The notes under the pieces are model-generated. The model had not been told where the DNA came from. It worked only from the letters and a program-made list of their open reading frames with translations, and made no database searches. This document shows positions 23,559-34,397 of a stretch of DNA of 64,000 nucleotides, piece by piece. The translations under genes and the position numbers were made by a program. The DNA comes from Phototrophicaceae bacterium (GTDB taxonomy: Bacteria; Chloroflexota; Anaerolineae; Aggregatilineales; Phototrophicaceae), in NCBI GenBank assembly GCA_965205875.1, contig CBDBIA010000004.1, forward strand, positions 2,682,830-2,746,829, written 5' to 3'. Position 1 is the stretch's first letter; each line of letters starts with the position of its first letter.

Positions 23559-24635
23559 TCAGTCGGCAGACAGGGTCAGCCAGCGTCGTTCAGCCGAGGA
23601 ACGGCGGATGCCATCCAGCGCCATCTGACAGTGCAGGCCATCCCGGAAGGTGGCGCCGGCCTGCAGGGCGCGTCCCTCGCGGATGGCTGCGCAGAGCTCC
23701 TGCATTAAAGCGACGAAAGACACGTTCCAGATGCCGCTGTTGACCATGGGCAGGCTGGCATTGGGGTCGCTTTCGCTGAGATCCACATAGTCCTCGCCGG
23801 CGCGGGCGAAGAGCAGTCGTTCGTCGGCGTCTGCCAGGCTGATCGTGCCCTCGCTGCCGAAAATGTACAGCGTGCTGCCTGTGCCGTGGCGCGCGGCGCC
23901 GCTCATAAAGACTGATACCAGCGCGCCGTTTTGCATTTCCAGCATGAAGCTGTTCTGGTCGTCGGCCGTCGCCCGCCAGGCCTCGCCGGTAGCTGCATCA
24001 ATGCGCTGCGGCACCATCGTGGCGACCTGACCGCTGAGCGCGCCGATATCCCCCAGCCACCAACGGATCATGTCGATCACATGCGAGCCGGCGGCGCCGA
24101 GACGGCCGCCGCCCATATTCGCCAGGGACCACCAGTCGCCGGCCGGGCGTGAGGCGGGGTCGCCCCACATGGGATTCACGCTGTTTATATTGACGTGCCG
24201 GATCGTGCCGGGCTCACCACTGTCCAGCAGGGCCTTGATACGGCGGCGGTTGGGGTTGAAGCGCAATTCGTGGCCGATGATGTGCAGCTTGCCGGCTGCC
24301 TCGGCCGCCTCCAGCATCGACTGCGCCTCGCCGGCGTTCATGGCCATCGGCTTTTCGCAGAGCACGTGCGCCCCGGCCGCCAGCGCGGCCAGGGTCATGG
24401 GCGCGTGCTGGACCGTTGGCGTGGCGATGCAGACCAGGTCGACTTCGTGGCGTTCCAGCATGAGGCGCCAGTCGTCGTAGGCCTGCGGGATGCCGAACTG
24501 GTCCGCCGCCGCCTGCGCGCTGCTCATGCGCGCGCTGGCGAGTGCCACGACCTGCGCGTCCTCAATGTTGGCAAGGGCGGGCAGGTAGGCGTCGCGGGCA
24601 AAGCTGGCGCCGATTACCGCCGTACGTATGGTCAT
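23559..24635 (-). CDS. Gfo/Idh/MocA family oxidoreductase
   Basis: 358 aa with N-terminal Rossmann MTIRTAVIGASFARDAYLPAL and the conserved EKP motif (VLCEKPMA). Confidence 0.85.
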   Translation of the reverse strand: MTIRTAVIGASFARDAYLPALANIEDAQVVALASARMSSAQAAADQFGIPQAYDDWRLMLERHEVDLVCIATPTVQHAPMTLAALAAGAHVLCEKPMAMNAGEAQSMLEAAEAAGKLHIIGHELRFNPNRRRIKALLDSGEPGTIRHVNINSVNPMWGDPASRPAGDWWSLANMGGGRLGAAGSHVIDMIRWWLGDIGALSGQVATMVPQRIDAATGEAWRATADDQNSFMLEMQNGALVSVFMSGAARHGTGSTLYIFGSEGTISLADADERLLFARAGEDYVDLSESDPNASLPMVNSGIWNVSFVALMQELCAAIREGRALQAGATFRDGLHCQMALDGIRRSSAERRWLTLSAD

Positions 24636-24726
24636 GTCTCTCTCCCTTTACAGTAATCAGCGCAGCGCTGTGATCTGTCCCGGCTGGCGCAAGGGTCCCG
24701 CCAGCAACGCCAACAGTCCCACCCCC

Positions 24727-25434
24727 TCATTGCCCTCCACGGGGCAATAGGGTCGGCGTCGCGTCGGGTTCCCGGTCTTCGACGATCAGGTCGCGGCCGG
24801 TGGCGACATGTGCCTGAATGGCCTCGGTGGCCCGCGTTTCGTCGCGGTCGTGGATGGCCTTGAGAATGGGCACGTGACTGTAGGCAACCAGGCGGAGGTC
24901 GCTGTTGCGCATGTTGCGCAGGGTCATCACCCGGCGCACGCGCAGCGCCACCAGATTCCAGGTCGTCAGCAAGAGGCTGTGGCCGCTCATGATGATCAGC
25001 GTATCGTGAAAGCTGTGGTCGAGTTCGTTGAGTTTGCGCATGCGGCCATCATTGGCAGCCCGCAACATGCGCTCGCAGATCGCTTCCAGTCGCCGCAGAT
25101 CGCAGGGATCGCTCTGGTCGATAATGCAGTGGATGGCGAGCGCCTCAAGCACGCCGCGCAGGCTGTAAAGCTCGACGATGTCCTTGCGATCCAGGCTGCG
25201 CACGCGCGTGCCACGCCTGGGAATCGTCTCGACCAGACCTTCGCTGTTGAGGATTTGAATGGCCTCGCGCAGGGGCGCGCGACTGACGCCCAGTTGCGCC
25301 GCCAGTTCGGTCTCGATCAGGGGTTGGCCGGGGCGCAGGTCGCCGGAGAGAATCGCATCGTGCAACACATCGACGACGTGCTCGCGCAGCGATTTGTTCT
25401 GCAGCTGGCCGAGTGCGGGGAGCGCGTCAGGCAT
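24727..25434 (-). CDS. GntR family transcriptional regulator (FadR/FCD subfamily)
   Basis: 235 aa. N-terminal wHTH (LRPGQPLIETELAAQLGVSRAPLREAIQILNSEGLV) and a helical C-terminal domain. Divergent from the DUF4438 operon. Confidence 0.85.
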   Translation of the reverse strand: MPDALPALGQLQNKSLREHVVDVLHDAILSGDLRPGQPLIETELAAQLGVSRAPLREAIQILNSEGLVETIPRRGTRVRSLDRKDIVELYSLRGVLEALAIHCIIDQSDPCDLRRLEAICERMLRAANDGRMRKLNELDHSFHDTLIIMSGHSLLLTTWNLVALRVRRVMTLRNMRNSDLRLVAYSHVPILKAIHDRDETRATEAIQAHVATGRDLIVEDREPDATPTLLPRGGQ

Positions 25435-25444
25435 GGCTGAATCT

Positions 25445-25473
25445 TTGACATCGAGGAAGCATCATCCTATACT
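25445..25473 (+). promoter_or_regulatory. near-consensus sigma70 promoter of the DUF4438 operon
   Basis: TTGACA, 17-nt spacer, TATACT. The palindrome TGTCGACA (25490..25497) lies about 10-15 nt downstream of the predicted start site. Confidence 0.55.
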
Positions 25474-25580
25474 CCCGGCACTGGTTGGCTGTCGACAATC
25501 GACTGGCGACTTGTCAGAGTATAGGCATTCTGGCCAGACCTGTCAAACAGGATGCGAGGCACGTTCAGGAGGTCACGCCG

Positions 25581-26450
25581 ATGCCACCCCCCGCGACCAA
25601 TGCCGCGCAACTCGTGCAGATCGCCGTCAGCGGCCGGGTAGCCCAGCCTTCCCTGCGCTACCCGGGTTACATCGCCGACACCAGCGGCAGCTCGGTCGTG
25701 CTGCCGGGAATGGCCGGCGTGGTCTACAACGCGCGCGTCGGTGACCCGGCCTTTGGCTGGGCCGGCGACCATGTGGAACCGGGCGTCTCCATCGACAATC
25801 CGGATAGCCCGGCTGATTTCGCCATGCACTACCTGACCTGCGTTGGCAACCGGGCGCGCGTCACCAGCGGCCTGGCAGCGGGCGCCGGGGGCATCGTAAC
25901 CGGCGAGCACGCGCGCCTGCTGGTCGACTTCGCGCCCGAAGTGAACGAGTTGCTCTGCGTCGGCGACAACATCCAGATCATGGCGCTGGGGCGCGGCCTC
26001 GCCTTCAGCGACCTGCCGCAGATCGAGGTCAAGAAGTGCAGCCCGGCTCTCATCGAGGCCATCCCGCTCAGCATTGCGGAGAGCGGCCGCCTGCGCGTGC
26101 CGGTCACCATGGCCTTGCCATCGCACATTATGGGCTCGGGCGCAGAGCTGAACTCCGAGTTTGTCGACCAGGATCTCATGTCGGGGGATCGTTCGCTGAT
26201 GGCCGAGCTGGGCATCGACCAGATGCGCCTCGGCGACCTGGTCGCCATCCCGGACGCGGATCACCGCTGGGGCCGCGGCTATCGCAAGGGCGCAATCACG
26301 ATAACCCTGTGCATTCACGGCGACTCGGTGATGAACGGGCACGGTCCAGGCATGCTGGCCCTGATGAGCTGTCCGGAACCGGACATCGAATGGGTGATTG
26401 ACCCACAGGCCAATATTGCCCGCTATCTGAACATTCGGGAACTGGCATGA
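25581..26450 (+). CDS. DUF4438-like protein, paralogue A
   Basis: ATG 25581 preceded by CAGGAGG. 289 aa. The block VVYNARVGDPAFGWAGDHVEPGVSI matches my recollection of the DUF4438 family and is shared with the next gene. Confidence 0.6.
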   Translation: MPPPATNAAQLVQIAVSGRVAQPSLRYPGYIADTSGSSVVLPGMAGVVYNARVGDPAFGWAGDHVEPGVSIDNPDSPADFAMHYLTCVGNRARVTSGLAAGAGGIVTGEHARLLVDFAPEVNELLCVGDNIQIMALGRGLAFSDLPQIEVKKCSPALIEAIPLSIAESGRLRVPVTMALPSHIMGSGAELNSEFVDQDLMSGDRSLMAELGIDQMRLGDLVAIPDADHRWGRGYRKGAITITLCIHGDSVMNGHGPGMLALMSCPEPDIEWVIDPQANIARYLNIRELA

Positions 26451-27328
26451 ACCTGCGCAGCAATGTCGACCACCTGGTGACAGTCTCCGCGATGGGGCAG
26501 ATCGCCTCGCCGGGCTTTCCCGGTCTGCCCGCGCTGCCCTACCAGCTGAGCGCGGAGGGCCAGCCCTTCCTGTTGCCGGCCTTCGGCGGGATTGTGTACA
26601 ACGTCTCGGTCGGCGATCCGGCCTTCGGCTGGCTGGCGGACTGCGTCCACCCGGGCGTCAGCATTGCGCTGGCCGATGACAATGGCAATCGCGGCCTCAA
26701 CATCCTTTCCTGCGTCGGCAACGTGGCCGTCGTGATGTCTGGCGGGGCGCAGGGCGCGCGCGGCGTGGTGACCGGCAAGTCCGGCCGCTTTGCCGACCAG
26801 GTCATCCTGCATTTCCCGCGAGCAGTCCGCGAGCAGATGGCCATCGGCGACAAAATCGTGGTGCGAACGCAGGGCGTCGGACTGCAACTGACGGATCACC
26901 CGGACGTAAAACTGAAGAGTTGCGCGCCCGGTCTGCTGGACGGCCTTGAAGTCACCAGCGACGACGCGGGCCGGCTGGCGGTGCCGGTGGTTGGCACGGT
27001 GCCGCCGCATCTGCTGGGCGCCGGCTCCGGCCTGGACAGCGAGGGTGGCTCGCTGCATATCCAGAGCGCGGACCGCGCGGCGCTGTCCGAGGCCGGTCTC
27101 GACGGTCTGCGCCTGGGCGACGTGGTCGCTCTGACGGGGCTGGACAGCAGCTGGAATCATGGCTACCGACGCGGCGCGAGCGCGGTCGGCGTCGTCGGGC
27201 AGGGCGATAGCCCGCGCAACGGCTACGGGCCCGGCGTCACCGTGCTGATGACCTCGGCCGCGGGCGGCATTGCGCCCATGGTTACGGCCGGCGTCAACCT
27301 TAAGGGGCTGTTTAACCTGGACGACTGA
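26447..27328 (+). CDS. DUF4438-like protein, paralogue B
   Basis: 293 aa. The start overlaps the paralogue A stop (ATGA). It aligns along its length to paralogue A (IVYNVSVGDPAFGWLADCVHPGVSI; LRLGDVVAL vs MRLGDLVAI; GYGPG vs GHGPG). Confidence 0.6.
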   Translation: MNLRSNVDHLVTVSAMGQIASPGFPGLPALPYQLSAEGQPFLLPAFGGIVYNVSVGDPAFGWLADCVHPGVSIALADDNGNRGLNILSCVGNVAVVMSGGAQGARGVVTGKSGRFADQVILHFPRAVREQMAIGDKIVVRTQGVGLQLTDHPDVKLKSCAPGLLDGLEVTSDDAGRLAVPVVGTVPPHLLGAGSGLDSEGGSLHIQSADRAALSEAGLDGLRLGDVVALTGLDSSWNHGYRRGASAVGVVGQGDSPRNGYGPGVTVLMTSAAGGIAPMVTAGVNLKGLFNLDD

Positions 27329-27348
27329 ATCGGGGCAGGAGGAACGCA

Positions 27349-27816
27349 ATGGCGGGGGAACGTTACATCAAGCACATGGCCTTCGCGGTGCATGACGCGC
27401 AGGCGGCATGGCAGCAATACAAGGACTTTCTCGGCCTGGGGCACGACGGCCGCATCGAGGACTACGAGAAGTCGCGCAATCGTGTGGCCCTCTTCAACGT
27501 CGGCGGAGTCGAGTACCAGCTCTGCCAGTCGATGGACGAAGGCGGTCGCTATGACGCCTGGATCAAGGAACGCGGCCAGCAGGGCCTGCATCACATTTGC
27601 TACGCCGTGCCGGACATTGAGGCGGCGCTATTGGAGGCCCAGGAGCGCGGCGCTACGCTGAAGGACTGTCCGGCCTGCAAGGTGATGGGCAGCCACGTCC
27701 ACCCGGAAGGCTGGGTCGCCTTTTTGGAAGAGGAGCCCGGCGGCATCGAGCTGGAGTTGATGCAGGTCTACACCGAGGCGGAACTGGAAGAATACAAGGC
27801 CGTGCAGGGAATCTGA
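27349..27816 (+). CDS. VOC (glyoxalase/methylmalonyl-CoA-epimerase-like) family protein
   Basis: 155 aa. IKHMAFAV ... GLHHICYAV ... GIELELMQ pattern of paired beta-alpha-beta-beta-beta modules. Confidence 0.7.
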   Translation: MAGERYIKHMAFAVHDAQAAWQQYKDFLGLGHDGRIEDYEKSRNRVALFNVGGVEYQLCQSMDEGGRYDAWIKERGQQGLHHICYAVPDIEAALLEAQERGATLKDCPACKVMGSHVHPEGWVAFLEEEPGGIELELMQVYTEAELEEYKAVQGI

Positions 27817-27997
27817 CGTCCGGTTTCCCATCAGGTCATCGCCTGGGCAAGATGTCGCATCTGTCCGTCTTCGGGCGCGCCACGGCGAGTATCTTGCATC
27901 CCTGCCTGCAGCATCCTGAAACGAACGCGGTTTGGCCACGGCGCGCAAAGCGTGGCGTGTGAGTCCATTGCGCGGCAAGCGGTAAAGGAGTCCCAAC

Positions 27998-29383
27998 GTG
28001 CGCTTTGACACTGTCATCCGCAATGGTGAGGTGATCACGGAGAATGGGGCGCTCGCGGCCGACGTCGCCATCCGCGACGGGGTCATCGCTGCGCTGCTGA
28101 CGCGCGGCACAGAAGTCGAGGCCGCGGAAGGCATCGACGCGAGCGGCCAGCTGGTGCTGCCTGGCGCCATCGACATTCACTTTCACTGCCGCGCGCCGGC
28201 CTGGCCGCAGCGCGGCGACTTCTCCACCGAGACGCGCGCCGCGGCCGCCGGCGGCGTGACCACTATCTTCGAGATGCCGGTCTCAAAACCCTGCTGCTCG
28301 ACCGCCGCCATCTTTCGTCAACGCAGGGCGCTGGCGGACGCCGATGCCTGGGTCAACTTTGCCCTCTACGCTGCGCCGGGCATGCTGCAACGCGACGAGG
28401 TGCACGCGCTGGCGGCGGAAGGCGCCATCGCCTTCAAGATCTTCATGACCTCCGCGCCCGCGGGCCGCGATGACGAGTTCGAGGGGCTGTGCCTGACCGA
28501 GGCGCCTGAGCAGCTGCAAGCCATGCAGCTGGTGGCGGAGACGGGAAGGCTGTGCGTGGCGCACGCGGAGGACAACGCGCTGCTTTCGCATTATACGGCG
28601 CAGTTGCAGGCGGCCGGCCGCAATGACCTGCAGGCGCACATCGAGTCGCGTCCGCCGCATGTCGAGGCGCTCGCCATCGCCACGCTGCTCACACTCAACG
28701 CGGAAGCCGGCGTCCGCCTGCACATCGCTCACGTGACGTCCAGGGCCGCGCTGGCGGTATTGCGCCGGCACCAGGCGGAGGGCGCGGACGTCAGCGGCGA
28801 GACTTGCCCGCAATACCTGTTCTTCACCGAGGAGGACTTCCTGCGCATCGGCGCCTGGGCGCGCATCAATCCGCCCATCCGCGGCCAGGCAGACCAGGAT
28901 GCGCTGTGGCAGGCGCTGGCGGACGGCACCCTGCTGGCCGTCACTACCGACCATTCGCCCTTCACGGTCGAAGAGAAAGAGCGGGCCAGCGAGAGCATCT
29001 GGAGCGTGCCTCCGGGCGCGCCCGGCGTCGAGGAGCTGGTGCCGGCGATGTTGGACGCTGCGCTGGCGGGCCGCCTGAGCGTCGGCGAGGCGGTGAAGCT
29101 CATCAGCACCAACGGCGCCCGACGCTTCGGCATCTACCCGCGCAAGGGCATCATCGCGCCCGGCTCCGACGCGGACATCGTGCTTTACGATCCGGCGGAC
29201 AGCACTACCATTCACCAGGACATGCTCTTCAGCAAGGCGCGCGCCAGCGACAAACTCTACGAAGGCATGACTTTTCGCGGTCGGGTGACGCGCACCCTGG
29301 TCAACGGCGCGACGGTCTACTCAAATGGCGAGATCGTCGGCGTGCGTGGCGGCGGGCGTTTCGTGCGGCCGGATACCGACTGA
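27998..29383 (+). CDS. cyclic amidohydrolase (dihydroorotase / hydantoinase / allantoinase family)
   Basis: 461 aa, GTG start. LPGAIDIHFH metal motif, carboxylated-Lys context IAFKIFM, HAED, and TDHSP near the C-terminus. Confidence 0.8.
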   Translation: MRFDTVIRNGEVITENGALAADVAIRDGVIAALLTRGTEVEAAEGIDASGQLVLPGAIDIHFHCRAPAWPQRGDFSTETRAAAAGGVTTIFEMPVSKPCCSTAAIFRQRRALADADAWVNFALYAAPGMLQRDEVHALAAEGAIAFKIFMTSAPAGRDDEFEGLCLTEAPEQLQAMQLVAETGRLCVAHAEDNALLSHYTAQLQAAGRNDLQAHIESRPPHVEALAIATLLTLNAEAGVRLHIAHVTSRAALAVLRRHQAEGADVSGETCPQYLFFTEEDFLRIGAWARINPPIRGQADQDALWQALADGTLLAVTTDHSPFTVEEKERASESIWSVPPGAPGVEELVPAMLDAALAGRLSVGEAVKLISTNGARRFGIYPRKGIIAPGSDADIVLYDPADSTTIHQDMLFSKARASDKLYEGMTFRGRVTRTLVNGATVYSNGEIVGVRGGGRFVRPDTD

Positions 29384-30320: not shown

Positions 30321-31106
30321 TTAGTAACCCGTGCCGACGATGACGCGGCCGTCACGGCTACGCATGAAGACGTTCTCGGTCTTGCCATAGGCCGCAAACA
30401 AATGCTCCGCGGAGAGAACTTCCTGTGGCGCACCATCAGCCAGGATGGTGCGCCGCACCAGCAGGATGCGCTTGAAGTCGCGCGCGGCGCGCACCATGTC
30501 GTGCGTGGTCATCAACAATGTCAGGCCCTGATTATGCAGAAACTTGAGTGTCGCGGTGATTTCCGAGGCGGCGGCCACGTCGACGCCGCTGAAAGGTTCG
30601 TCCAGCAGCAAAATGTCGGCTTCCTGGGCGAGGGCGCGCGCGATAAAAATGCGTTGCTGCTGGCCGCCGCTGAGGGCGCTGAAGGGACGTTTGGCCAGAC
30701 TTTCGAGGTCCAGCATTTCCAGCACTTCGCTTGCGCGCCGCCGGGCCTCCTGCGGCCACCAGGGTAGCCAGCGACTGGCGCGCGTGCAGCCCATCATCAC
30801 GACTTCTTCCACAGTGACGGGGAAGTTGGGATCGATGGCGTTGCGCTGCGGCACAAGCCCGATTTGCACGTTCATGTGCTGGCAATCGTGACCGTGCACG
30901 CGGACCTCACCGGTCTCGTGGGGGACCAGCCCGGCGAGGGCCAGTAGCAAGGTGCTCTTGCCGGCGCCGTTGGGCCCGAGAATGGCGACGCTCTCCCCGG
31001 GCTGGACGATAAAGTTAATGTCAGCGATGGCGCGCGGCATCATTTGGTAGCCGGCGCAGAGCTCACAGACTTCCAGCGCCGCCGGTGAGGGCGACCCGGC
31101 GCTCAT
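30321..31106 (-). CDS. znuC: metal ABC transporter ATP-binding protein
   Basis: 261 aa. Walker A GPNGAGKST, signature LSGGQQQR, Walker B ILLLDEP. Confidence 0.8.
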   Translation of the reverse strand: MSAGSPSPAALEVCELCAGYQMMPRAIADINFIVQPGESVAILGPNGAGKSTLLLALAGLVPHETGEVRVHGHDCQHMNVQIGLVPQRNAIDPNFPVTVEEVVMMGCTRASRWLPWWPQEARRRASEVLEMLDLESLAKRPFSALSGGQQQRIFIARALAQEADILLLDEPFSGVDVAAASEITATLKFLHNQGLTLLMTTHDMVRAARDFKRILLVRRTILADGAPQEVLSAEHLFAAYGKTENVFMRSRDGRVIVGTGY

Positions 31107-32395
31107 GCTGTGTCTTCCCTCTCAAGGGAGGCCACAATGCTTGTGACGAGGTTACGCAACATCTCGAGCCAGGTGCCGGCGAGGCCCTCCGCTTCACCCA
31201 GGGACTCCAGTTGCAGGAGCACCAGTTGCGCGCCGCTTTCAGCGGCCACCTGTTGCGCTACATCGTTGCTGGACGTCGCCTCACCAAAGATGACCGGCAG
31301 GTTGTGTTCCCGCACCAGATCGATCAGGGCCGCGAGTTGCGCCACGCCCGGTTCGGCCAGGGTACTGGTGCCCGGCAGCACGCTGCCCGGCGTTTCAAAG
31401 CCAAAGCCGGCGGCAAAATAACCCAGGGTGAGGTGGTTACTGATCAGCACGCGTTGTTCCTGCGGTAGCGCTGCAACCAGCAGCAGCAGCTCCTGCTCCA
31501 GCGCGACGATATCGTCGAGGAAGGCGTCGCTGCGCGCCCCATAGGCCGTTGCGTTTGCGCTGTCGCGCGCCGCCAGGACGTCCCGCGCCAACAGGGTCCA
31601 GAGCGCGACGTTGCGCGGCAGCAGCCAGACGTGGGGGTCGCAGCCCTGCAGCGCGCTGCAATTGACGCTGTAGAGCGGGCCGGGGCCGGCCTGGCCCGGC
31701 AGGGTCAGGAAGCGCTCACCCAGCTCCACTTCGTGCTGCTCGCAAAGGCTTTCCATTGCCTCGTGGTGAGCGTCCTCCTCACCTTCGTGAACCTCGTCAA
31801 CGTGCTCGTCCTCATCGCCATGGTCGTCGTCTTCGTGCTCGCCTTCGTCGCCATGGTCGTCGTCAACGTGCTCGCCTTCGTCGCCATGATCGTCGTCTTC
31901 GTGCTCGTCCTCGTCGCCATGATCGTCATTTTCGTGCTCGTCCTCATCGCCATGGTCGTCGTCGACGTGCTCGTCCTCGTCGCCATGGTCGGCATCGGCG
32001 TGATCGTCCTCGTCGCCGTGATCGTCGTCTTCGTGCTCGTGCTCATGACCACTTGGCAGGACCGCCACGCAGTCCGAGAGCGTGAACAGCGCGTCTTCGG
32101 CTACCGTGAGCTCAATGGCGGCAAGCAGGCCTTCCTCATAGCCGGCGCCGTTGATGAAGACGAGGTCGGCATCGGCCAGGGCGCGCAGGTCGGAGGGTGC
32201 CGGGCGGTAGCTGTGGGGATCTGAACCCCTGGGAATGAGGGAAGTGACTTCAGCGTCCGCTCCGGCCACGCGCGCCAGTACGTCGGCGGCGATGCTGTGG
32301 CTGGCGACGATGCGCAGCCCTGTCTCCTGCGCGGCCAGCGAGGCCGAAAAGAGCAGTACAAGTAGAACTGCAAGTGCAATTCTGATCAGACGCAT
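31103..32395 (-). CDS. znuA: cluster A-I metal-binding lipoprotein/SBP with giant His/Asp/Glu-rich loop
   Basis: Start ATG 32395 (MRLIRIALAVLLVLLF signal peptide, AAGAGGAGAG upstream). The rest of track ORF 31103..33325 is antisense to the GT2 gene. Conserved HSYRP and DPHVWL metal ligand blocks. A ~95-aa acidic His-rich insert is typical of ZnuA. Confidence 0.8.
   Translation of the reverse strand: MRLIRIALAVLLVLLFSASLAAQETGLRIVASHSIAADVLARVAGADAEVTSLIPRGSDPHSYRPAPSDLRALADADLVFINGAGYEEGLLAAIELTVAEDALFTLSDCVAVLPSGHEHEHEDDDHGDEDDHADADHGDEDEHVDDDHGDEDEHENDDHGDEDEHEDDDHGDEGEHVDDDHGDEGEHEDDDHGDEDEHVDEVHEGEEDAHHEAMESLCEQHEVELGERFLTLPGQAGPGPLYSVNCSALQGCDPHVWLLPRNVALWTLLARDVLAARDSANATAYGARSDAFLDDIVALEQELLLLVAALPQEQRVLISNHLTLGYFAAGFGFETPGSVLPGTSTLAEPGVAQLAALIDLVREHNLPVIFGEATSSNDVAQQVAAESGAQLVLLQLESLGEAEGLAGTWLEMLRNLVTSIVASLEREDTA
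31802..32050 (-). repeat. 7.5 tandem 33-bp repeats encoding (E/V)DDDHGDE(D/G)EH units
   Basis: Plus-strand units begin at 31802, 31835, 31868, 31901, 31934, 31967 and 32000, with a partial unit at 32033. The consensus is GTGCTCGTCCTCRTCGCCATGRTCGTCGTCTTC. Confidence 0.9.
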
Positions 32396-32545
32396 GCCAT
32401 CTCTCCTCTTATCACCCTGAATTCCCGGGTAAGGCACAAGGTAGCGGGAATCAAACCGGGGTGCAAGACTGGTGCCAGGGTGCACTCCCGGTTGACGCAC
32501 CCTGCCAACGCGGTCAGAATCAGGCGCGAGCAAGCCCGGAGGGGC

Positions 32546-33268
32546 ATGAACGAGTGCGCAAGGCCCAAAACGTTGCTGGTCATCCCGGCGCTGAACGAGG
32601 CGGCCAACATTGGCCAGGTGGTCACGCGCGCGCGGCAGCAGCTGCCCGGAGTCGATCTGCTCGTCATCAACGACGGCTCCAGCGACGACACCGCCGCGGT
32701 CGCGCGCGAGGCTGGCGCCATGGTGCTGACGCTGCCCTACAACGTGGGAATTGGCGCGGCCGTGCAGACCGGCTTCGTCTACGCTGACCGGCACGGCTAC
32801 GAGATTGTGCTGCGCTGCGACGGTGACGGCCAACATGATGCCGGCGACCTGCTGCGCCTGCAGCAGGCCTTGCAGGCGGGGGACAGCGACGTCGTGACCG
32901 GCACGCGTTTCGGCGCCCACGTAAGCGCCAGGGTCGTTACCCTGGGTCGACGCCTTGGCATCCTCCTGCTCTCCCGCCTCATTTCGCTCCTCATCGGCCA
33001 GACCATCACGGACCCGACCTCCGGCCTGGCCGCCTTCAACCGCAATGCCATCCGGCTCTTCGCGCAGGAGTATCCGCACGATTACCCGGAGCCAGAGGGC
33101 ATCGTGCTGGCGCAACGCAACGGGCTGCGCCAGCAGGAGCTGCCCGTGACGATGCAGCCGCGCCGGCTGGGCCGCTCGTCCATCAGCTACCTGGACGGCG
33201 TCTACTACATGGTCAAGGTCACCCTGGCGATCCTCATCAGCCTGCTGCGGCCGCCGCGGCCGCGCTGA
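32546..33268 (+). CDS. family 2 glycosyltransferase (polyprenol-phosphate glycosyltransferase-like)
   Basis: ATG 32546 preceded by GGAGGGG. LLVIPALNEAANI ... LLVINDGSSDDT ... CDGDGQHD motifs. 240 aa. Confidence 0.8.
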   Translation: MNECARPKTLLVIPALNEAANIGQVVTRARQQLPGVDLLVINDGSSDDTAAVAREAGAMVLTLPYNVGIGAAVQTGFVYADRHGYEIVLRCDGDGQHDAGDLLRLQQALQAGDSDVVTGTRFGAHVSARVVTLGRRLGILLLSRLISLLIGQTITDPTSGLAAFNRNAIRLFAQEYPHDYPEPEGIVLAQRNGLRQQELPVTMQPRRLGRSSISYLDGVYYMVKVTLAILISLLRPPRPR

Positions 33269-33284
33269 AAGGCAAGGCCGACCC

Positions 33285-34397
33285 ATGCGCGTGCTGATGC
33301 TCTCCAAGGCCTGTCTGGTGGGCATCTATCAGCGCAAGCTGGAGGAAATTGCGCGCCTGGGTGTGGAGCTGTTGACGCTGGTGCCGCCTCTCTGGCGCGA
33401 CGCCGGCGGCGCGACGCGGCTGGAACGGCTGTATACCAGCGGCTATCGTCTCGAGACCACCGACATACGCCTCAACGGCAACTATCACCTGCATCACTAT
33501 CCGCGGCTGGGAGCGGCGTTGCGTGCATTTCGCCCCGATGTGCTGCATATCGACGAGGAGCCCTATAACCTGGCGACCTGGCAGGCGCTGTGGCTGGCGC
33601 GCCGGGCTGGTTGCCGCGCGCTCTTCTTTAGCTGGCAGAACATCCGGCGCCGCTATCCGCCGCCCTTCAGCCTCGGCGAGCGCTACGTGCTGCTCGGCGT
33701 AGACCACGCCATCGCCGGCACGGAGAGCGCCGCCGCTGTCCTGCGCGCCAAGGGCTACGGCGGGCCGCTGAGCGTCATCCCGCAGTTCGGCATCGACCCG
33801 CAGCTCTTCCGACCCCCGGATTCGCCCTTGCCGCCGCGACCCTTCACCCTGGGCTACTTTGGCCGCCTGGTGCCCGAAAAAGGGTTGGACAGCCTCTTGC
33901 AGGCGCTGGCCATGCTGGATGGCGAGAGTCGACTGCGCCTGGTTGGCGAGGGGCCACAGCGCGCTGAGCTGGTCGCGCTGGCGCAGCGCCTGGGCCTGGG
34001 CGCGCGCGTGGACTTCTGCGCGGCGCTGCCCTCGGTCGCCATGCCGGCGCAATATCATCAGATCGACGCGCTGGTCTTGCCCTCAGTGACGCGGCGCAAC
34101 TGGAAGGAACAGTTCGGGCGCGTGCTGGTGGAAGCGATGGCCAGCGCGCTGCCCGTCGTCGGCTCGGACAGCGGCGCGATTCCCGGCGTGATCGGGGACG
34201 CCGGTCTGACATTCGCTGAAGGCGACGCGGCGGCGCTGGCGGCGCAACTGACGCGGCTGCAACATGACGCGACGCTGCGGCAGGCGCTGGCGCAACGGGG
34301 CCGCGAACGCGCGCTGGCGCAGTTCACGCATGCTGGCGTGGCAGAGGCGACGGTGGCGGTCTATCGAACGCTGGCGGAGGAGCGCAAGAAGAACTGA
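33285..34397 (+). CDS. family 4 (GT-B) glycosyltransferase
   Basis: 370 aa. C-terminal EQFGRVLVEAMASALPVVGSDSGAIP, the E-x7-E-type GT4 signature. Confidence 0.8.
   Translation: MRVLMLSKACLVGIYQRKLEEIARLGVELLTLVPPLWRDAGGATRLERLYTSGYRLETTDIRLNGNYHLHHYPRLGAALRAFRPDVLHIDEEPYNLATWQALWLARRAGCRALFFSWQNIRRRYPPPFSLGERYVLLGVDHAIAGTESAAAVLRAKGYGGPLSVIPQFGIDPQLFRPPDSPLPPRPFTLGYFGRLVPEKGLDSLLQALAMLDGESRLRLVGEGPQRAELVALAQRLGLGARVDFCAALPSVAMPAQYHQIDALVLPSVTRRNWKEQFGRVLVEAMASALPVVGSDSGAIPGVIGDAGLTFAEGDAAALAAQLTRLQHDATLRQALAQRGRERALAQFTHAGVAEATVAVYRTLAEERKKN

Follow-up and report, generated by a model that had tools for sequence, protein, structure and literature searches.

Comparison with related genomes shows that the locus derives from a conserved accessory catabolic island, of which it is a copy trimmed by deletions. 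It belongs to a genuine orphan nutrient-breakdown pathway centred on an uncharacterised pair of DUF4438 proteins, here designated DufA and DufB. We put the probability of the explanation as a whole (a trimmed, repressor-controlled catabolic island in which DufA and DufB would form an enzyme with the chemistry proposed below) at roughly 60%. The individual chemical steps are proposed with low confidence.

Organization of the locus

Within the window (the whole 64,000-nt stretch of DNA that was analysed, from a member of the Phototrophicaceae, Chloroflexota), six ORFs were located, each where an earlier note on this DNA had placed it, and all were assigned by Pfam. The minus strand encodes Gfo1 (a Gfo/Idh/MocA NAD(P)-dependent dehydrogenase of 358 aa, positions 23559-24635) and a GntR+FCD regulator of the FadR/FCD subfamily (235 aa, 24727-25434). 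The plus strand encodes the DUF4438 proteins DufA (289 aa, 25581-26450) and DufB (293 aa, 26447-27328), a VOC-fold metalloenzyme (155 aa, 27349-27816) and the cyclic amidohydrolase Amh (461 aa, GTG start, 27998-29383), with good ribosome-binding sites ahead of DufA, VOC and Amh. Because GntR and Gfo1 are co-directional on the minus strand, the genes form two divergent transcription units and not the single GntR-controlled operon described in the earlier note, although GntR control itself is supported at the sequence level. Measured against three sister strains, dN/dS lies between 0.05 and 0.24 for all six genes (GntR, 0.18-0.24; Gfo1, 0.14-0.17; DufA, about 0.1; DufB, 0.08-0.11; VOC, 0.05-0.07; Amh, 0.07-0.10), and flanking genes are similarly low. 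The six surviving genes are thus under purifying selection.

Conservation and trimming of the cluster

Neighbourhoods were compared across 80 related loci and found to be conserved. The canonical cluster comprises about 17 genes in two arms, one containing Gfo1, an orphan 460-aa protein, OppCB, SBP5, Gfo2, an NAD-epimerase and GntR, and the other containing DufA, DufB, VOC, Ldh_2, a dead aminotransferase, an aminotransferase, AstE, M20 and Amh. DufA is present in 80 of these loci, DufB in 78, the aminotransferase and Ldh_2 in 67 each, VOC (following DufB) in 63, GntR (divergent from DufA) and OppB in 54 each, SBP5 in 53, the dead aminotransferase in 50, Gfo2 in 45, Gfo1 and Amh (the latter invariably at the distal end of the plus arm) in 42 each, and M20 in 41. 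Within Chloroflexota the distribution of the island is sporadic, and some MAGs assigned by their labels to other phyla carry it too. Judged against this arrangement, the window has lost 11 canonical genes via internal deletions in both arms, so that the six genes cannot be equated with the pathway, as had been supposed, but are what is left of a cluster of about 17. Gfo1, which shares 70% identity with its counterpart in the canonical cluster of locus L084, closes the minus arm; in relatives its distance from GntR is greater by about 7 kb.

Apart from the genes kept between VOC and Amh, strains with 94% identity are collinear with the window. At this junction (27817..27997, 181 bp), which corresponds to the site of Ldh_2 to M20 in the canonical cluster, one strain (L003, 94% nucleotide identity) retains intact dead aminotransferase and aminotransferase genes, a second (L004) retains an intact M20, and a third (L005) has the same 181-bp junction as the window. 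With 66-67% identity to their canonical counterparts, the genes retained by the first two strains are true orthologues. The 181-bp spacer showed no detectable trace of the missing genes, and genome-wide searches for the other missing canonical genes gave paralogue-level matches or none, with no orthologue at comparable identity. Since the intervening genes are deleted, the adjacency of VOC and Amh is secondary, produced by loss of Ldh_2, two aminotransferase genes, AstE and M20.

Promoters, operator and regulator

The regulator matches the Pfam families GntR (4e-20) and FCD (8e-23), and a tblastn search of the genome for homologues of the cluster regulator (E<1e-10) returned only the GntR gene of this locus. 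Two promoters face each other in the intergenic region, that of the DufA arm at 25445..25473 on the plus strand and that of the GntR-Gfo1 arm at 25518..25546 on the minus strand. Each consists of TTGACA, a 17-nt spacer and TATACT (11/12 consensus matches), and they are the only promoter-like sites found by a consensus scan of 6.4 kb, versus 0.6 expected by chance. A TTGACA...TATAAT arrangement occurs upstream of DufA in most related loci, and conservation in related loci extends to the mirrored GATTATAG...TGTCAAG elements.

Between both -10 boxes of these face-to-face sigma-70 promoters lies a palindromic operator of the ATTGTCGACAAT type, GCTGTCGACAATCGAC, at 25488..25503, with the core palindrome TGTCGACA at 25490-25497. 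Of all sites in the 3.1-Mb genome, this one scores highest. A search of the 400 nt upstream of DufA, allowing no more than 1 mismatch to ATTGTCGACAAT, found such a site in 54 related loci, with the family consensus cTGTCGATTGTCGACAATCGACAG. Given its position between both -10 boxes, a bound repressor would block both promoters. We therefore propose, from sequence, that the FadR-type GntR binds the palindrome centred on TGTCGACA and represses the GntR-Gfo1 and DufA-DufB-VOC-Amh arms together, and that binding of a pathway metabolite to the FCD domain would lift this repression. The ligand-responsive control suggested earlier agrees with this conserved operator between two strong promoters.

A second, paralogous island

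The extended operator, GTTGTCGACAATCGACAG, has just one other site in the 3.1-Mb genome. This site lies 271 kb away, behind a TTGACA-17-TACCAT promoter and ahead of a second island encoding an aminotransferase pair, Ldh_2, three AstE deacylases, two S9 peptidases, two SBP5 proteins, OppBC, a DegT aminotransferase and four MmgE/PrpD proteins. GntR probably represses both arms and the second island. The second island is syntenic in relatives; against this reading, in Candidatus Flexifilum it comes with a GntR paralogue of its own and with a different repeat operator. This second island is probably the in-trans source of uptake, deacylation, transamination and reduction, steps that the trimmed copy has lost. 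Note that complementation in trans should be considered an assumption, because the genes of the second island share only 41-47% identity with those lost from the trimmed cluster.

The DUF4438 pair

Membership of both proteins in DUF4438, proposed in the earlier note, was borne out: DufA matches PF14505 (6e-44) and PF20999 (5e-44), DufB matches the same families (2e-49 and 2e-34), and all four matches are far above gathering scores. The two are indeed paralogues, with 37% identity over their full length (E = 2e-68), and the ATGA overlap of the DufA stop and DufB start is present in the sequence (GCATGAAC, 26445-26452). A search of the literature on DUF4438 found no paper on the family (the match for PF14505 concerned an unrelated family). 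TM1086 (3DCL, 3N99; 5 and 30 chains per deposited entry) matches DufA at E = 3e-58, and an AF2 model of DufA (pLDDT 88) gave a TM-score of 0.89 to 3DCL. Foldseek comparison of the fold with the PDB gave no significant match besides TM1086, in keeping with the description of the family as having no assigned function.

Residue conservation was measured over 76 family representatives. DufA keeps the family-wide residues D55, D63, H64, E66, C87, N90, H110, D129, D219, H246 and H254. Cys87 (72/76) and Asn90 (73/76) are the most invariant, alongside conserved His. In DufB, four His and one Glu that are conserved in 55-59 of the 76 representatives have been replaced (H64C, E66H, H110S, H246Q, H254Y), while Cys87 and Asn90 are still present. 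By its residues, DufA is the "live" paralogue and DufB a degenerate one. The pair occurs in 78 of the 80 loci and overlaps by 4 nt in 72 of the 78; DufA itself is 67-97% identical across the 80 loci. A natural B-A fusion (P0123, 636 aa) has a degenerate N-terminal half, an intact C-terminal half and a Sec-type signal peptide. Pair conservation, overlap, residue loss and fusion together make the obligate hetero-oligomer suggested earlier well supported at the level of sequence.

The accompanying enzymes

Gfo1 matches GFO_IDH_MocA (2e-29) and C-terminal domains in Pfam but does not reach the cut-off for IolG (131.8 vs 355) or that for levoglucosan dehydrogenase (128.6 vs 650). Among structures with a named function, it is closest to levoglucosan dehydrogenase (6A3F) and to DgpA (7XR9), a C-glycoside 3-dehydrogenase; both matches are weak (E about 1e-27) and are outscored by the unnamed oxidoreductases 4FB5 and 4H3V. 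The VOC fold reported earlier was confirmed (Glyoxalase_4, 8e-15). This protein resembles methylmalonyl-CoA epimerase and aligns with human MCEE (3RMU), with the motifs at the IKH, HHIC and ELE positions kept; assignment to the epimerase equivalog was rejected (TIGR03081, 61 bits vs a cut-off of 115). Amh (Amidohydro_1, 1e-18) is of the hydantoinase/allantoinase/dihydroorotase type and lies below every equivalog cut-off, including those for allantoinase (TIGR03178, 343.7 bits vs 357.85) and dihydropyrimidinase (318 vs 393). Its closest solved relative is the L-hydantoinase 1GKR (4e-76, aligned end to end). This alignment upholds the claim of an intact HxH and carboxylated-Lys site, as the binuclear-metal and carboxylated-lysine ligands H61, H63, K147, H189, H245 and D318 are all present.

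Alternative explanations

An earlier suggestion, that of a ureide, hydantoin or dihydropyrimidine-type pathway, would make Amh central and have the DUF4438 pair act on the ring-opened product. The similarity of Amh to allantoinase and 1GKR, with its metal site intact, fits such a pathway, as do two members of the canonical cluster, Ldh_2 (whose family includes ureidoglycolate dehydrogenase) and an M20 enzyme translationally coupled to Amh. The M20 partner, however, is ArgE/DapE-type (TIGR01910, 241.6 bits vs 217.6) rather than a carbamoylase or allantoate amidohydrolase, the best-scoring assignment of Ldh_2 is sulfolactate-dehydrogenase-like with AllD far below cut-off (152 vs 496), and the importer is Opp/Dpp-type. 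With Amh in barely half of the loci, its adjacency here a deletion product and partner enzymes missing, a hydantoin, allantoin or ureide substrate is not supported and we consider it improbable. It is highly improbable that the loss of 11 genes has left the cluster non-functional and decaying. Large deletions in both arms, gene subsets that differ among sister strains and the loss of the cognate importer and the Ldh_2 and aminotransferase genes would all be expected of decay, but the six ORFs are intact and as constrained as their flanking genes, the promoters, operator and ribosome-binding sites are all preserved, and the lost steps could come from the co-regulated paralogous island, as predicted above.

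Two further alternatives concern the DUF4438 pair itself. DufAB might be a Cys-His amidohydrolase or peptidase that cleaves an imported peptide-like compound at an unusual amide or isopeptide bond. The near-invariance of Cys87 and Asn90 beside conserved His and the abundance of peptidases and deacylases in the islands (M14, M20, AstE, S9) are consistent with this, and single-copy DUF4438 genes (Thermotoga, Clostridia) adjoin rhomboid, Rce1-like, S11 peptidase and M23 protease genes. These contexts are non-catabolic, so the basic activity of the family may not be sugar-related. Against a hydrolase, DufB keeps Cys87 and Asn90 after losing all four His, so Cys87 may be structural, and the fold is unlike any known cysteine hydrolase (Foldseek vs PDB); we regard this possibility as rather unlikely. 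Little credence is given to a non-enzymatic pair, i.e. a structural, assembly or ligand-sequestering oligomer beside the pathway. The chain counts of the TM1086 entries hint at large oligomers, no fold relative of known activity was found in the PDB, and single-copy members occur in non-metabolic contexts; but a live/dead pattern in which exactly the conserved polar residues are lost is typical of catalytic/non-catalytic enzyme pairs, and DufA, 67-78% identical across the order, heads a catabolic operon.

Proposed pathway and comparison with known systems

In our preferred explanation, DufA and DufB would form one hetero-oligomeric enzyme, with a predicted active site in DufA (four conserved His, Asp/Glu residues and the near-invariant Cys) and DufB as a non-catalytic partner. 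Our best guess for the substrate is an N-acylated or cyclised amino-acid derivative with a hydroxylated (sugar- or cyclitol-like) part, imported by Opp/Dpp. Gfo1 would oxidise a secondary alcohol of this compound to a ketone, which elsewhere may be made by the aminotransferase. DufAB would then act on the carbonyl-activated intermediate, most likely as a metal-dependent lyase or isomerase (elimination or C-N/C-O cleavage); the Sec-type signal peptide of the fusion protein suggests that it does so without a nucleotide cofactor. VOC would epimerise or isomerise adjacent to the carbonyl, Amh would open a cyclic amide, and the N-acyl product would be deacylated by AstE/M20-type enzymes. Strict coupling of Gfo1 to DufAB is not general, because only 42 of the 80 loci have Gfo1 within 10 kb of the pair.

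A xylose-isomerase-like lyase gene was looked for in two related loci (L083 and L084), and neither contains one. Levoglucosan dehydrogenase and DgpA, the nearest named relatives of Gfo1, are 3-dehydrogenases that ready their substrates for elimination, and the reaction proposed for DufAB is likened to those of TIM-barrel lyases that act after Gfo-type dehydrogenases in other pathways.

Gene layout and family assignments

The cluster lies in a 3.1 Mb genome of Phototrophicaceae (Aggregatilineales, Chloroflexota), and both the ORF listing and the profile searches bear out the six genes that the earlier note had described. A Gfo/Idh/MocA dehydrogenase (Gfo1, 23559-24635) and a GntR+FCD regulator (GntR, 24727-25434) are encoded on the minus strand, and two DUF4438 proteins, DufA (25581-26450) and DufB (26447-27328), a VOC-fold protein (27349-27816) and a cyclic amidohydrolase (Amh, 27998-29383) on the plus strand. 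These genes had been taken for a single operon; because GntR and Gfo1 are co-directional, the unit is instead composed of two divergent arms. Beyond Amh, a long minus-strand ORF (31103-33325) adjoins metal ABC-transporter genes. At about 31700-32050 it encodes ∼110 residues of repeated DDDHGDEDEH-type units, an unusually long His/Asp/Glu-rich run.

Assignments were made against curated NCBIfam equivalog cut-offs wherever a specific function was considered. Gfo1 has the domains of the Gfo/Idh/MocA superfamily and falls below the cut-offs for IolG (131.8 against 355) and LGDH (128.6 against 650); it is filed as a member of the Gfo/Idh/MocA family only. Its nearest named solved relatives are levoglucosan dehydrogenase (LGDH, 6A3F) and DgpA (7XR9), a C-glycoside 3-dehydrogenase. 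Note that two unnamed structural-genomics oxidoreductases score higher. The VOC protein belongs to its fold class by a Glyoxalase_4 match of 55.6 bits (cut-off 27). It carries ligand motifs like those of methylmalonyl-CoA epimerase and scores 61 bits against the profile for that enzyme, TIGR03081, whose cut-off is 114.95; no CoA-ligase or CoA-transferase family was found among the Pfam matches in the regions scanned, namely the islands of two annotated relatives (L083 and L084) and a second array in the host genome (island 2). The full length of Amh can be aligned with L-hydantoinase 1GKR (4e-76), and the binuclear metal site of Amh (HxH, carboxylated Lys, His, His, Asp) is intact, as had been claimed, with H61, H63, K147, H189, H245 and D318 all kept.

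The DUF4438 pair

Both DUF4438 proteins contain PF14505 and PF20999 in N-to-C order (E = 1e-34 to 1e-50), with scores of 149.4 and 149.7 bits in DufA and 167.2 and 118.4 bits in DufB; the gathering cut-offs are 24.9 and 27, respectively. They share 37% identity from end to end, and the DufA stop overlaps the DufB start in an ATGA sequence, so that the proposed family name and the paralogy both stand. A library-wide search returned ∼700 DUF4438 representatives at 50% clustering. A structure from this family has been available since 2008. The library searched for DUF4438, TM1086, PF14505, PF20999 or IPR027924 yielded no paper on these proteins; one literature match for PF14505 proved to be a mis-cited accession and concerns an unrelated family.

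An AF2 model of DufA (pLDDT 88.4) was compared with the PDB using Foldseek. The sole significant match was TM1086 (3DCL_A), with a TM-score of 0.89 and E = 4.5e-31. All other matches had E values of at least 0.1 and were small beta-barrels of ribosomal proteins or F1-ATPase, which are uninformative.

Residue conservation was scored over 76 full-length members, and the conserved polar residues are D55, D63, H64, E66, C87, N90, H110, D129, D219, H246 and H254. All 11 are present in DufA. DufB retains D55, D63, C87, N90, D129 and D219 and has lost the remainder through H64C, E66H, H110S, H246Q and H254Y. The overlap between the two genes is 4 nt in 72 of 78 loci, and a natural 636-aa fusion (P0123) joins two DUF4438 modules in the order B-A, with a degenerate N-terminal half and an intact C-terminal half. 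Taken together, the overlap, the residue losses in DufB and the fusion argue for the hetero-oligomer proposed in the earlier note, in which one protomer would be catalytic and the other non-catalytic. P0123 also begins with a Sec-type signal peptide, and therefore at least some DUF4438 members act outside the cytoplasm. The existence of this secreted fusion argues against a requirement for NAD, ATP or CoA.

The canonical island and its trimming

To describe the neighborhood, 80 loci with close DufA relatives (66-97% identity) were scored with the proteins of one fully annotated relative. The expectation that the neighborhood would be conserved was confirmed, as a canonical two-arm island recurs among these loci. 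Its minus arm encodes GntR, an NAD-epimerase/dehydratase, a second dehydrogenase (Gfo2), SBP_bac_5, OppB, OppC, an orphan 460-aa protein and Gfo1. Its plus arm encodes DufA, DufB, VOC, Ldh_2, a truncated “dead” aminotransferase, an aminotransferase, sometimes AstE, an ArgE/DapE-type M20 deacylase and Amh, often followed by an M14 peptidase. DufA was found in all 80 loci and DufB in 78, followed by the aminotransferase and Ldh_2 (67 each), VOC (63), GntR and OppB (54 each), SBP5 (53), the dead aminotransferase (50), Gfo2 (45), Gfo1 and Amh (42 each) and M20 (41). The 460-aa protein (L084:1497-2879, minus strand) has orthologues in 38 of the 80 loci and is missing from the window. No relative of it was found in Pfam, NCBIfam or the PDB, and it is a second orphan family of the same pathway.

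The window's cluster is a trimmed copy of this larger conserved island. Six canonical genes between GntR and Gfo1 are missing from the minus arm, leaving a 91-bp spacer, and five between VOC and Amh are missing from the plus arm, leaving a 181-bp spacer in which no remnants of the deleted genes were found. The adjacency of VOC and Amh, which had been read as a clue to the pathway, is thus real in the window but secondary, because it was produced by deletion. The left-arm deletion is common to the window and three sister strains (87-96% nucleotide identity), in which the right arm varies: L003 has VOC, the dead aminotransferase, the aminotransferase and Amh; L004 has VOC, M20 and Amh; and L005 is the same as the window. 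Since the sister strains differ on this arm and the genes they kept are true orthologues of the canonical ones (66-67% identity), nested, lineage-specific deletions are the simplest history of the cluster. When the missing genes were sought across the whole genome, the search gave either paralogues of 41-47% identity or, as for the 460-aa orphan and the dead aminotransferase, no match at all. When L004:13482-13620 was compared with window positions 27998-28131, the first ∼45 codons of Amh were strongly diverged and the rest was 94% identical, which suggests a recombination breakpoint within L004 Amh at the edge of the variable segment.

Values of dN/dS against the sister strains range from 0.05 to 0.24 for all six surviving genes. 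These are as low as the values for flanking genes, and the six genes are being maintained. Through the loss of 11 genes, selection has retained GntR, Gfo1, DufA, DufB, VOC and Amh, which marks them as a working core and makes the window's cluster a natural minimal set.

In an even sample of 401 Chloroflexota genomes, only 8 carried DUF4438, and the island is therefore accessory rather than a lineage trait. It is also horizontally mobile. The 80 loci include metagenome-assembled genomes (MAGs) labelled Chloroflexota, Deinococcota, Proteobacteria and Acidobacteriota, and DufA relatives of 67-75% identity occur in MAGs labelled Trueperaceae, Alphaproteobacteria, Acidobacteriaceae and Burkholderiales.

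Promoters, operator and probable regulon

The regulator has a GntR domain (71.8 bits, cut-off 27) and an FCD domain (81.7 bits, cut-off 24.3), arranged as an N-terminal winged helix and a C-terminal FCD as in the FadR (FCD) subfamily. Across 6.4 kb only two promoter-like sites were found, both of them in the divergent region, which is 146 bp long. Each consists of TTGACA, a 17-nt spacer and TATACT (11/12 matches), and the two stand face to face. Between the two -10 boxes lies GCTGTCGACAATCGAC, and the same element occurs upstream in 54 related loci with the consensus cTGTCGATTGTCGACAATCGACAG. We infer that this palindrome is the operator of the GntR protein, which a small-molecule effector would release from it. 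A repressor bound at GCTGTCGACAATCGAC would block both promoters, and GntR is probably auto-regulated. The precise map of operator and promoters is a direct handle for an inducer search.

A genome-wide scan placed the extended operator word at only one other position, G000:C4:2436488 (contig C4 of the host genome, G000), where it lies behind a TTGACA-17-TACCAT promoter and before a long co-directional gene array. A third, weak operator-like site, AATGTAGACAGTAT, occurs at G000:C4:2748530 (L091:4530-4553), 1.7 kb past the end of the window. The stretch around it is AT-rich and precedes a small ORF that encodes a basic protein, and the site was set aside as probably unrelated to the regulon.

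The array behind the second operator, island 2 (G000:C4:2436440-2461000; loci L089 and L090), spans ∼24 kb outside the window, 271 kb upstream. It encodes a degenerate aminotransferase, an aminotransferase and Ldh_2, then AstE followed by two S9 peptidases and two further AstE paralogues, two SBP_bac_5 proteins, OppB, OppC, a DegT-type aminotransferase and four MmgE/PrpD paralogues in tandem. At only 41-47% identity, the aminotransferase, Ldh_2 and AstE of island 2 are paralogues of the genes that island 1 (the window's cluster) has lost. Four consecutive MmgE/PrpD genes are unusual. This family includes iminodisuccinate epimerase, and the quartet hints at aminopolycarboxylate or opine-like substrates.

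The synteny of island 2 extends to the sister strains and to Candidatus Flexifilum, whose genome carries both islands; two genomes bearing the full canonical island lack island 2. In Flexifilum a separate GntR paralogue accompanies island 2, and five tandem GGTCGAT heptamers stand between the TTGACA and TATAAT boxes of the island-2 promoter (L098:4540-4625, G005:C3); these heptamers resemble the GTCGA-based operator in a repeat-type form. The window's genome has a single such GntR regulator by tblastn and an operator of the island-1 type at island 2, from which we infer a single regulon. Island 2 would then supply uptake, deacylation, transamination and reduction steps, and as a second co-regulated island it widens the list of candidate pathway enzymes.

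Proposed pathway and alternatives

In the most far-reaching reading, to which we give a probability of roughly one in eight, DUF4438 A/B is an unrecognized two-subunit enzyme class, made up of a live and a dead protomer, all-beta and using no nucleotide cofactor. It would catalyze an elimination or a C-N/C-O cleavage on a keto intermediate that comes from either a Gfo-type dehydrogenase or an aminotransferase, and would take the place that TIM-barrel lyases occupy in levoglucosan, C-glycoside and inositol degradation. Such a pathway would be cross-phylum and horizontally spread, and would degrade a hydroxylated, N-acylated or cyclized amino-acid-derived compound. Our guess at the substrate class is an Opp-imported, N-acylated or cyclized amino-acid derivative with a hydroxylated part. 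In our preferred model, a carbonyl would be created by Gfo1 or by an aminotransferase, after which DufAB would carry out a metal-dependent elimination, isomerization or cleavage. VOC would then epimerize adjacent to the carbonyl and Amh would open the cyclic amide. AstE/M20-type enzymes would remove the acyl group from the product, leaving the aminotransferase and Ldh_2 to complete the pathway, with a logic that mirrors ectoine catabolism.

The main rival makes DufAB a Cys-His amidohydrolase; it draws on the fact that no residues of the family vary less than C87 and N90. The earlier note had suggested a pathway for a cyclic amide, a ureide-like compound or a sugar-derived one; the ureide reading, which the intact metal site and hydantoinase-like sequence of Amh would suit, is now weak. 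Amh falls below every equivalog cut-off (343.7 against 357.85 for the allantoinase profile TIGR03178, 318.4 against 393.25 for the dihydropyrimidinase profile TIGR02033 and 307 against 650 for ErtD), the M20 enzyme coupled to it in relatives is of the ArgE/DapE type (TIGR01910), and Amh is missing from about half of the loci. Identification of the substrate would define a new catabolic pathway, probably one with new enzyme chemistry. A functionally unassigned family, DUF4438, heads a strongly conserved, repressor-controlled island.

Comparison with known systems

Gfo-type 3-dehydrogenases work with lyases in the degradation of levoglucosan (LgdA/LGDH, LgdB), C-glycosides (DgpA, DgpB-DgpC) and inositol (IolG, IolE), where LGDH and DgpA make the ketone that enables elimination by the partner lyase. 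Similarly, in the window the gene for a Gfo/Idh/MocA dehydrogenase neighbors those for a two-subunit enzyme that probably depends on metal. The known lyases are xylose-isomerase-like TIM barrels, whereas DUF4438 has an unrelated all-beta fold; no xylose-isomerase-like (AP_endonuc_2) lyase was found among the six window genes or is annotated in the L083 and L084 islands. The analogy is offered as a hypothesis on how the cluster may work, with no claim of membership.

Ectoine catabolism uses a ring hydrolase (DoeA), an AstE-family deacetylase (DoeB/EutE), a transaminase (DoeD) and a dehydrogenase (DoeC). The full island follows a similar logic, Amh being its ring-opening hydrolase and AstE and M20 its N-acyl deacylases, alongside an aminotransferase and a dehydrogenase. 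It differs in that its ring hydrolase is a hydantoinase-type amidohydrolase whereas DoeA is of the M24 family, its AstE is DoeB-like at 101 bits, far under the DoeB cut-off of 403, its importer is Opp-type, and its DUF4438, VOC and Gfo enzymes have no counterpart in ectoine catabolism. As for the hyu clusters (Arthrobacter aurescens HyuH/HyuC/HyuA/HyuP), the L-hydantoinase HyuH (1GKR) is the enzyme closest to Amh, which in relatives is likewise coupled to an M20-family hydrolase. In contrast to hyu, that hydrolase is ArgE/DapE-type and no carbamoylase, and the Amh-M20 pair is missing from about half of the DUF4438 loci. No hydantoin-utilization partners (N-carbamoyl-amino-acid amidohydrolase, racemase or permease) were found in the window, and no racemase or hydantoin permease is annotated in the L083 and L084 islands.

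The regulator resembles FadR-subfamily GntR repressors in general, both in its winged-helix and FCD domains and in a TGT-n-ACA-type palindrome that overlaps divergent promoters. It differs from them in its operator word, ATTGTCGACAAT, and the flanking GTCGA repeats at 7-nt spacing, which are island-specific, and in a putative effector specific to this island.

The structural prototype of DUF4438 is TM1086 of Thermotoga maritima (3DCL, 3N99), which shares with DufA the two-domain all-beta fold, ∼40% identity and the conserved His, Asp and Cys residues. The TM1086-type gene of a close Thermotoga relative lies beside a rhomboid gene, trkAH and tRNA synthetases. Single-copy contexts were inspected in Thermotoga sp. 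KOL6 (L086), Caloranaerobacter azorensis (L087) and Zhenhengia yiwuensis (L088), and no metabolic neighbors common to the three emerged; the genes flanking single-copy TM1086-type genes are not catabolic. Direct flanks of the single-copy genes were a rhomboid protease, an Rce1-like CPBP protease with an S11 carboxypeptidase, or an unannotated 547-aa protein. TM1086 is single-copy in a housekeeping neighborhood, whereas in the window a live/dead tandem pair heads a repressor-controlled catabolic operon.
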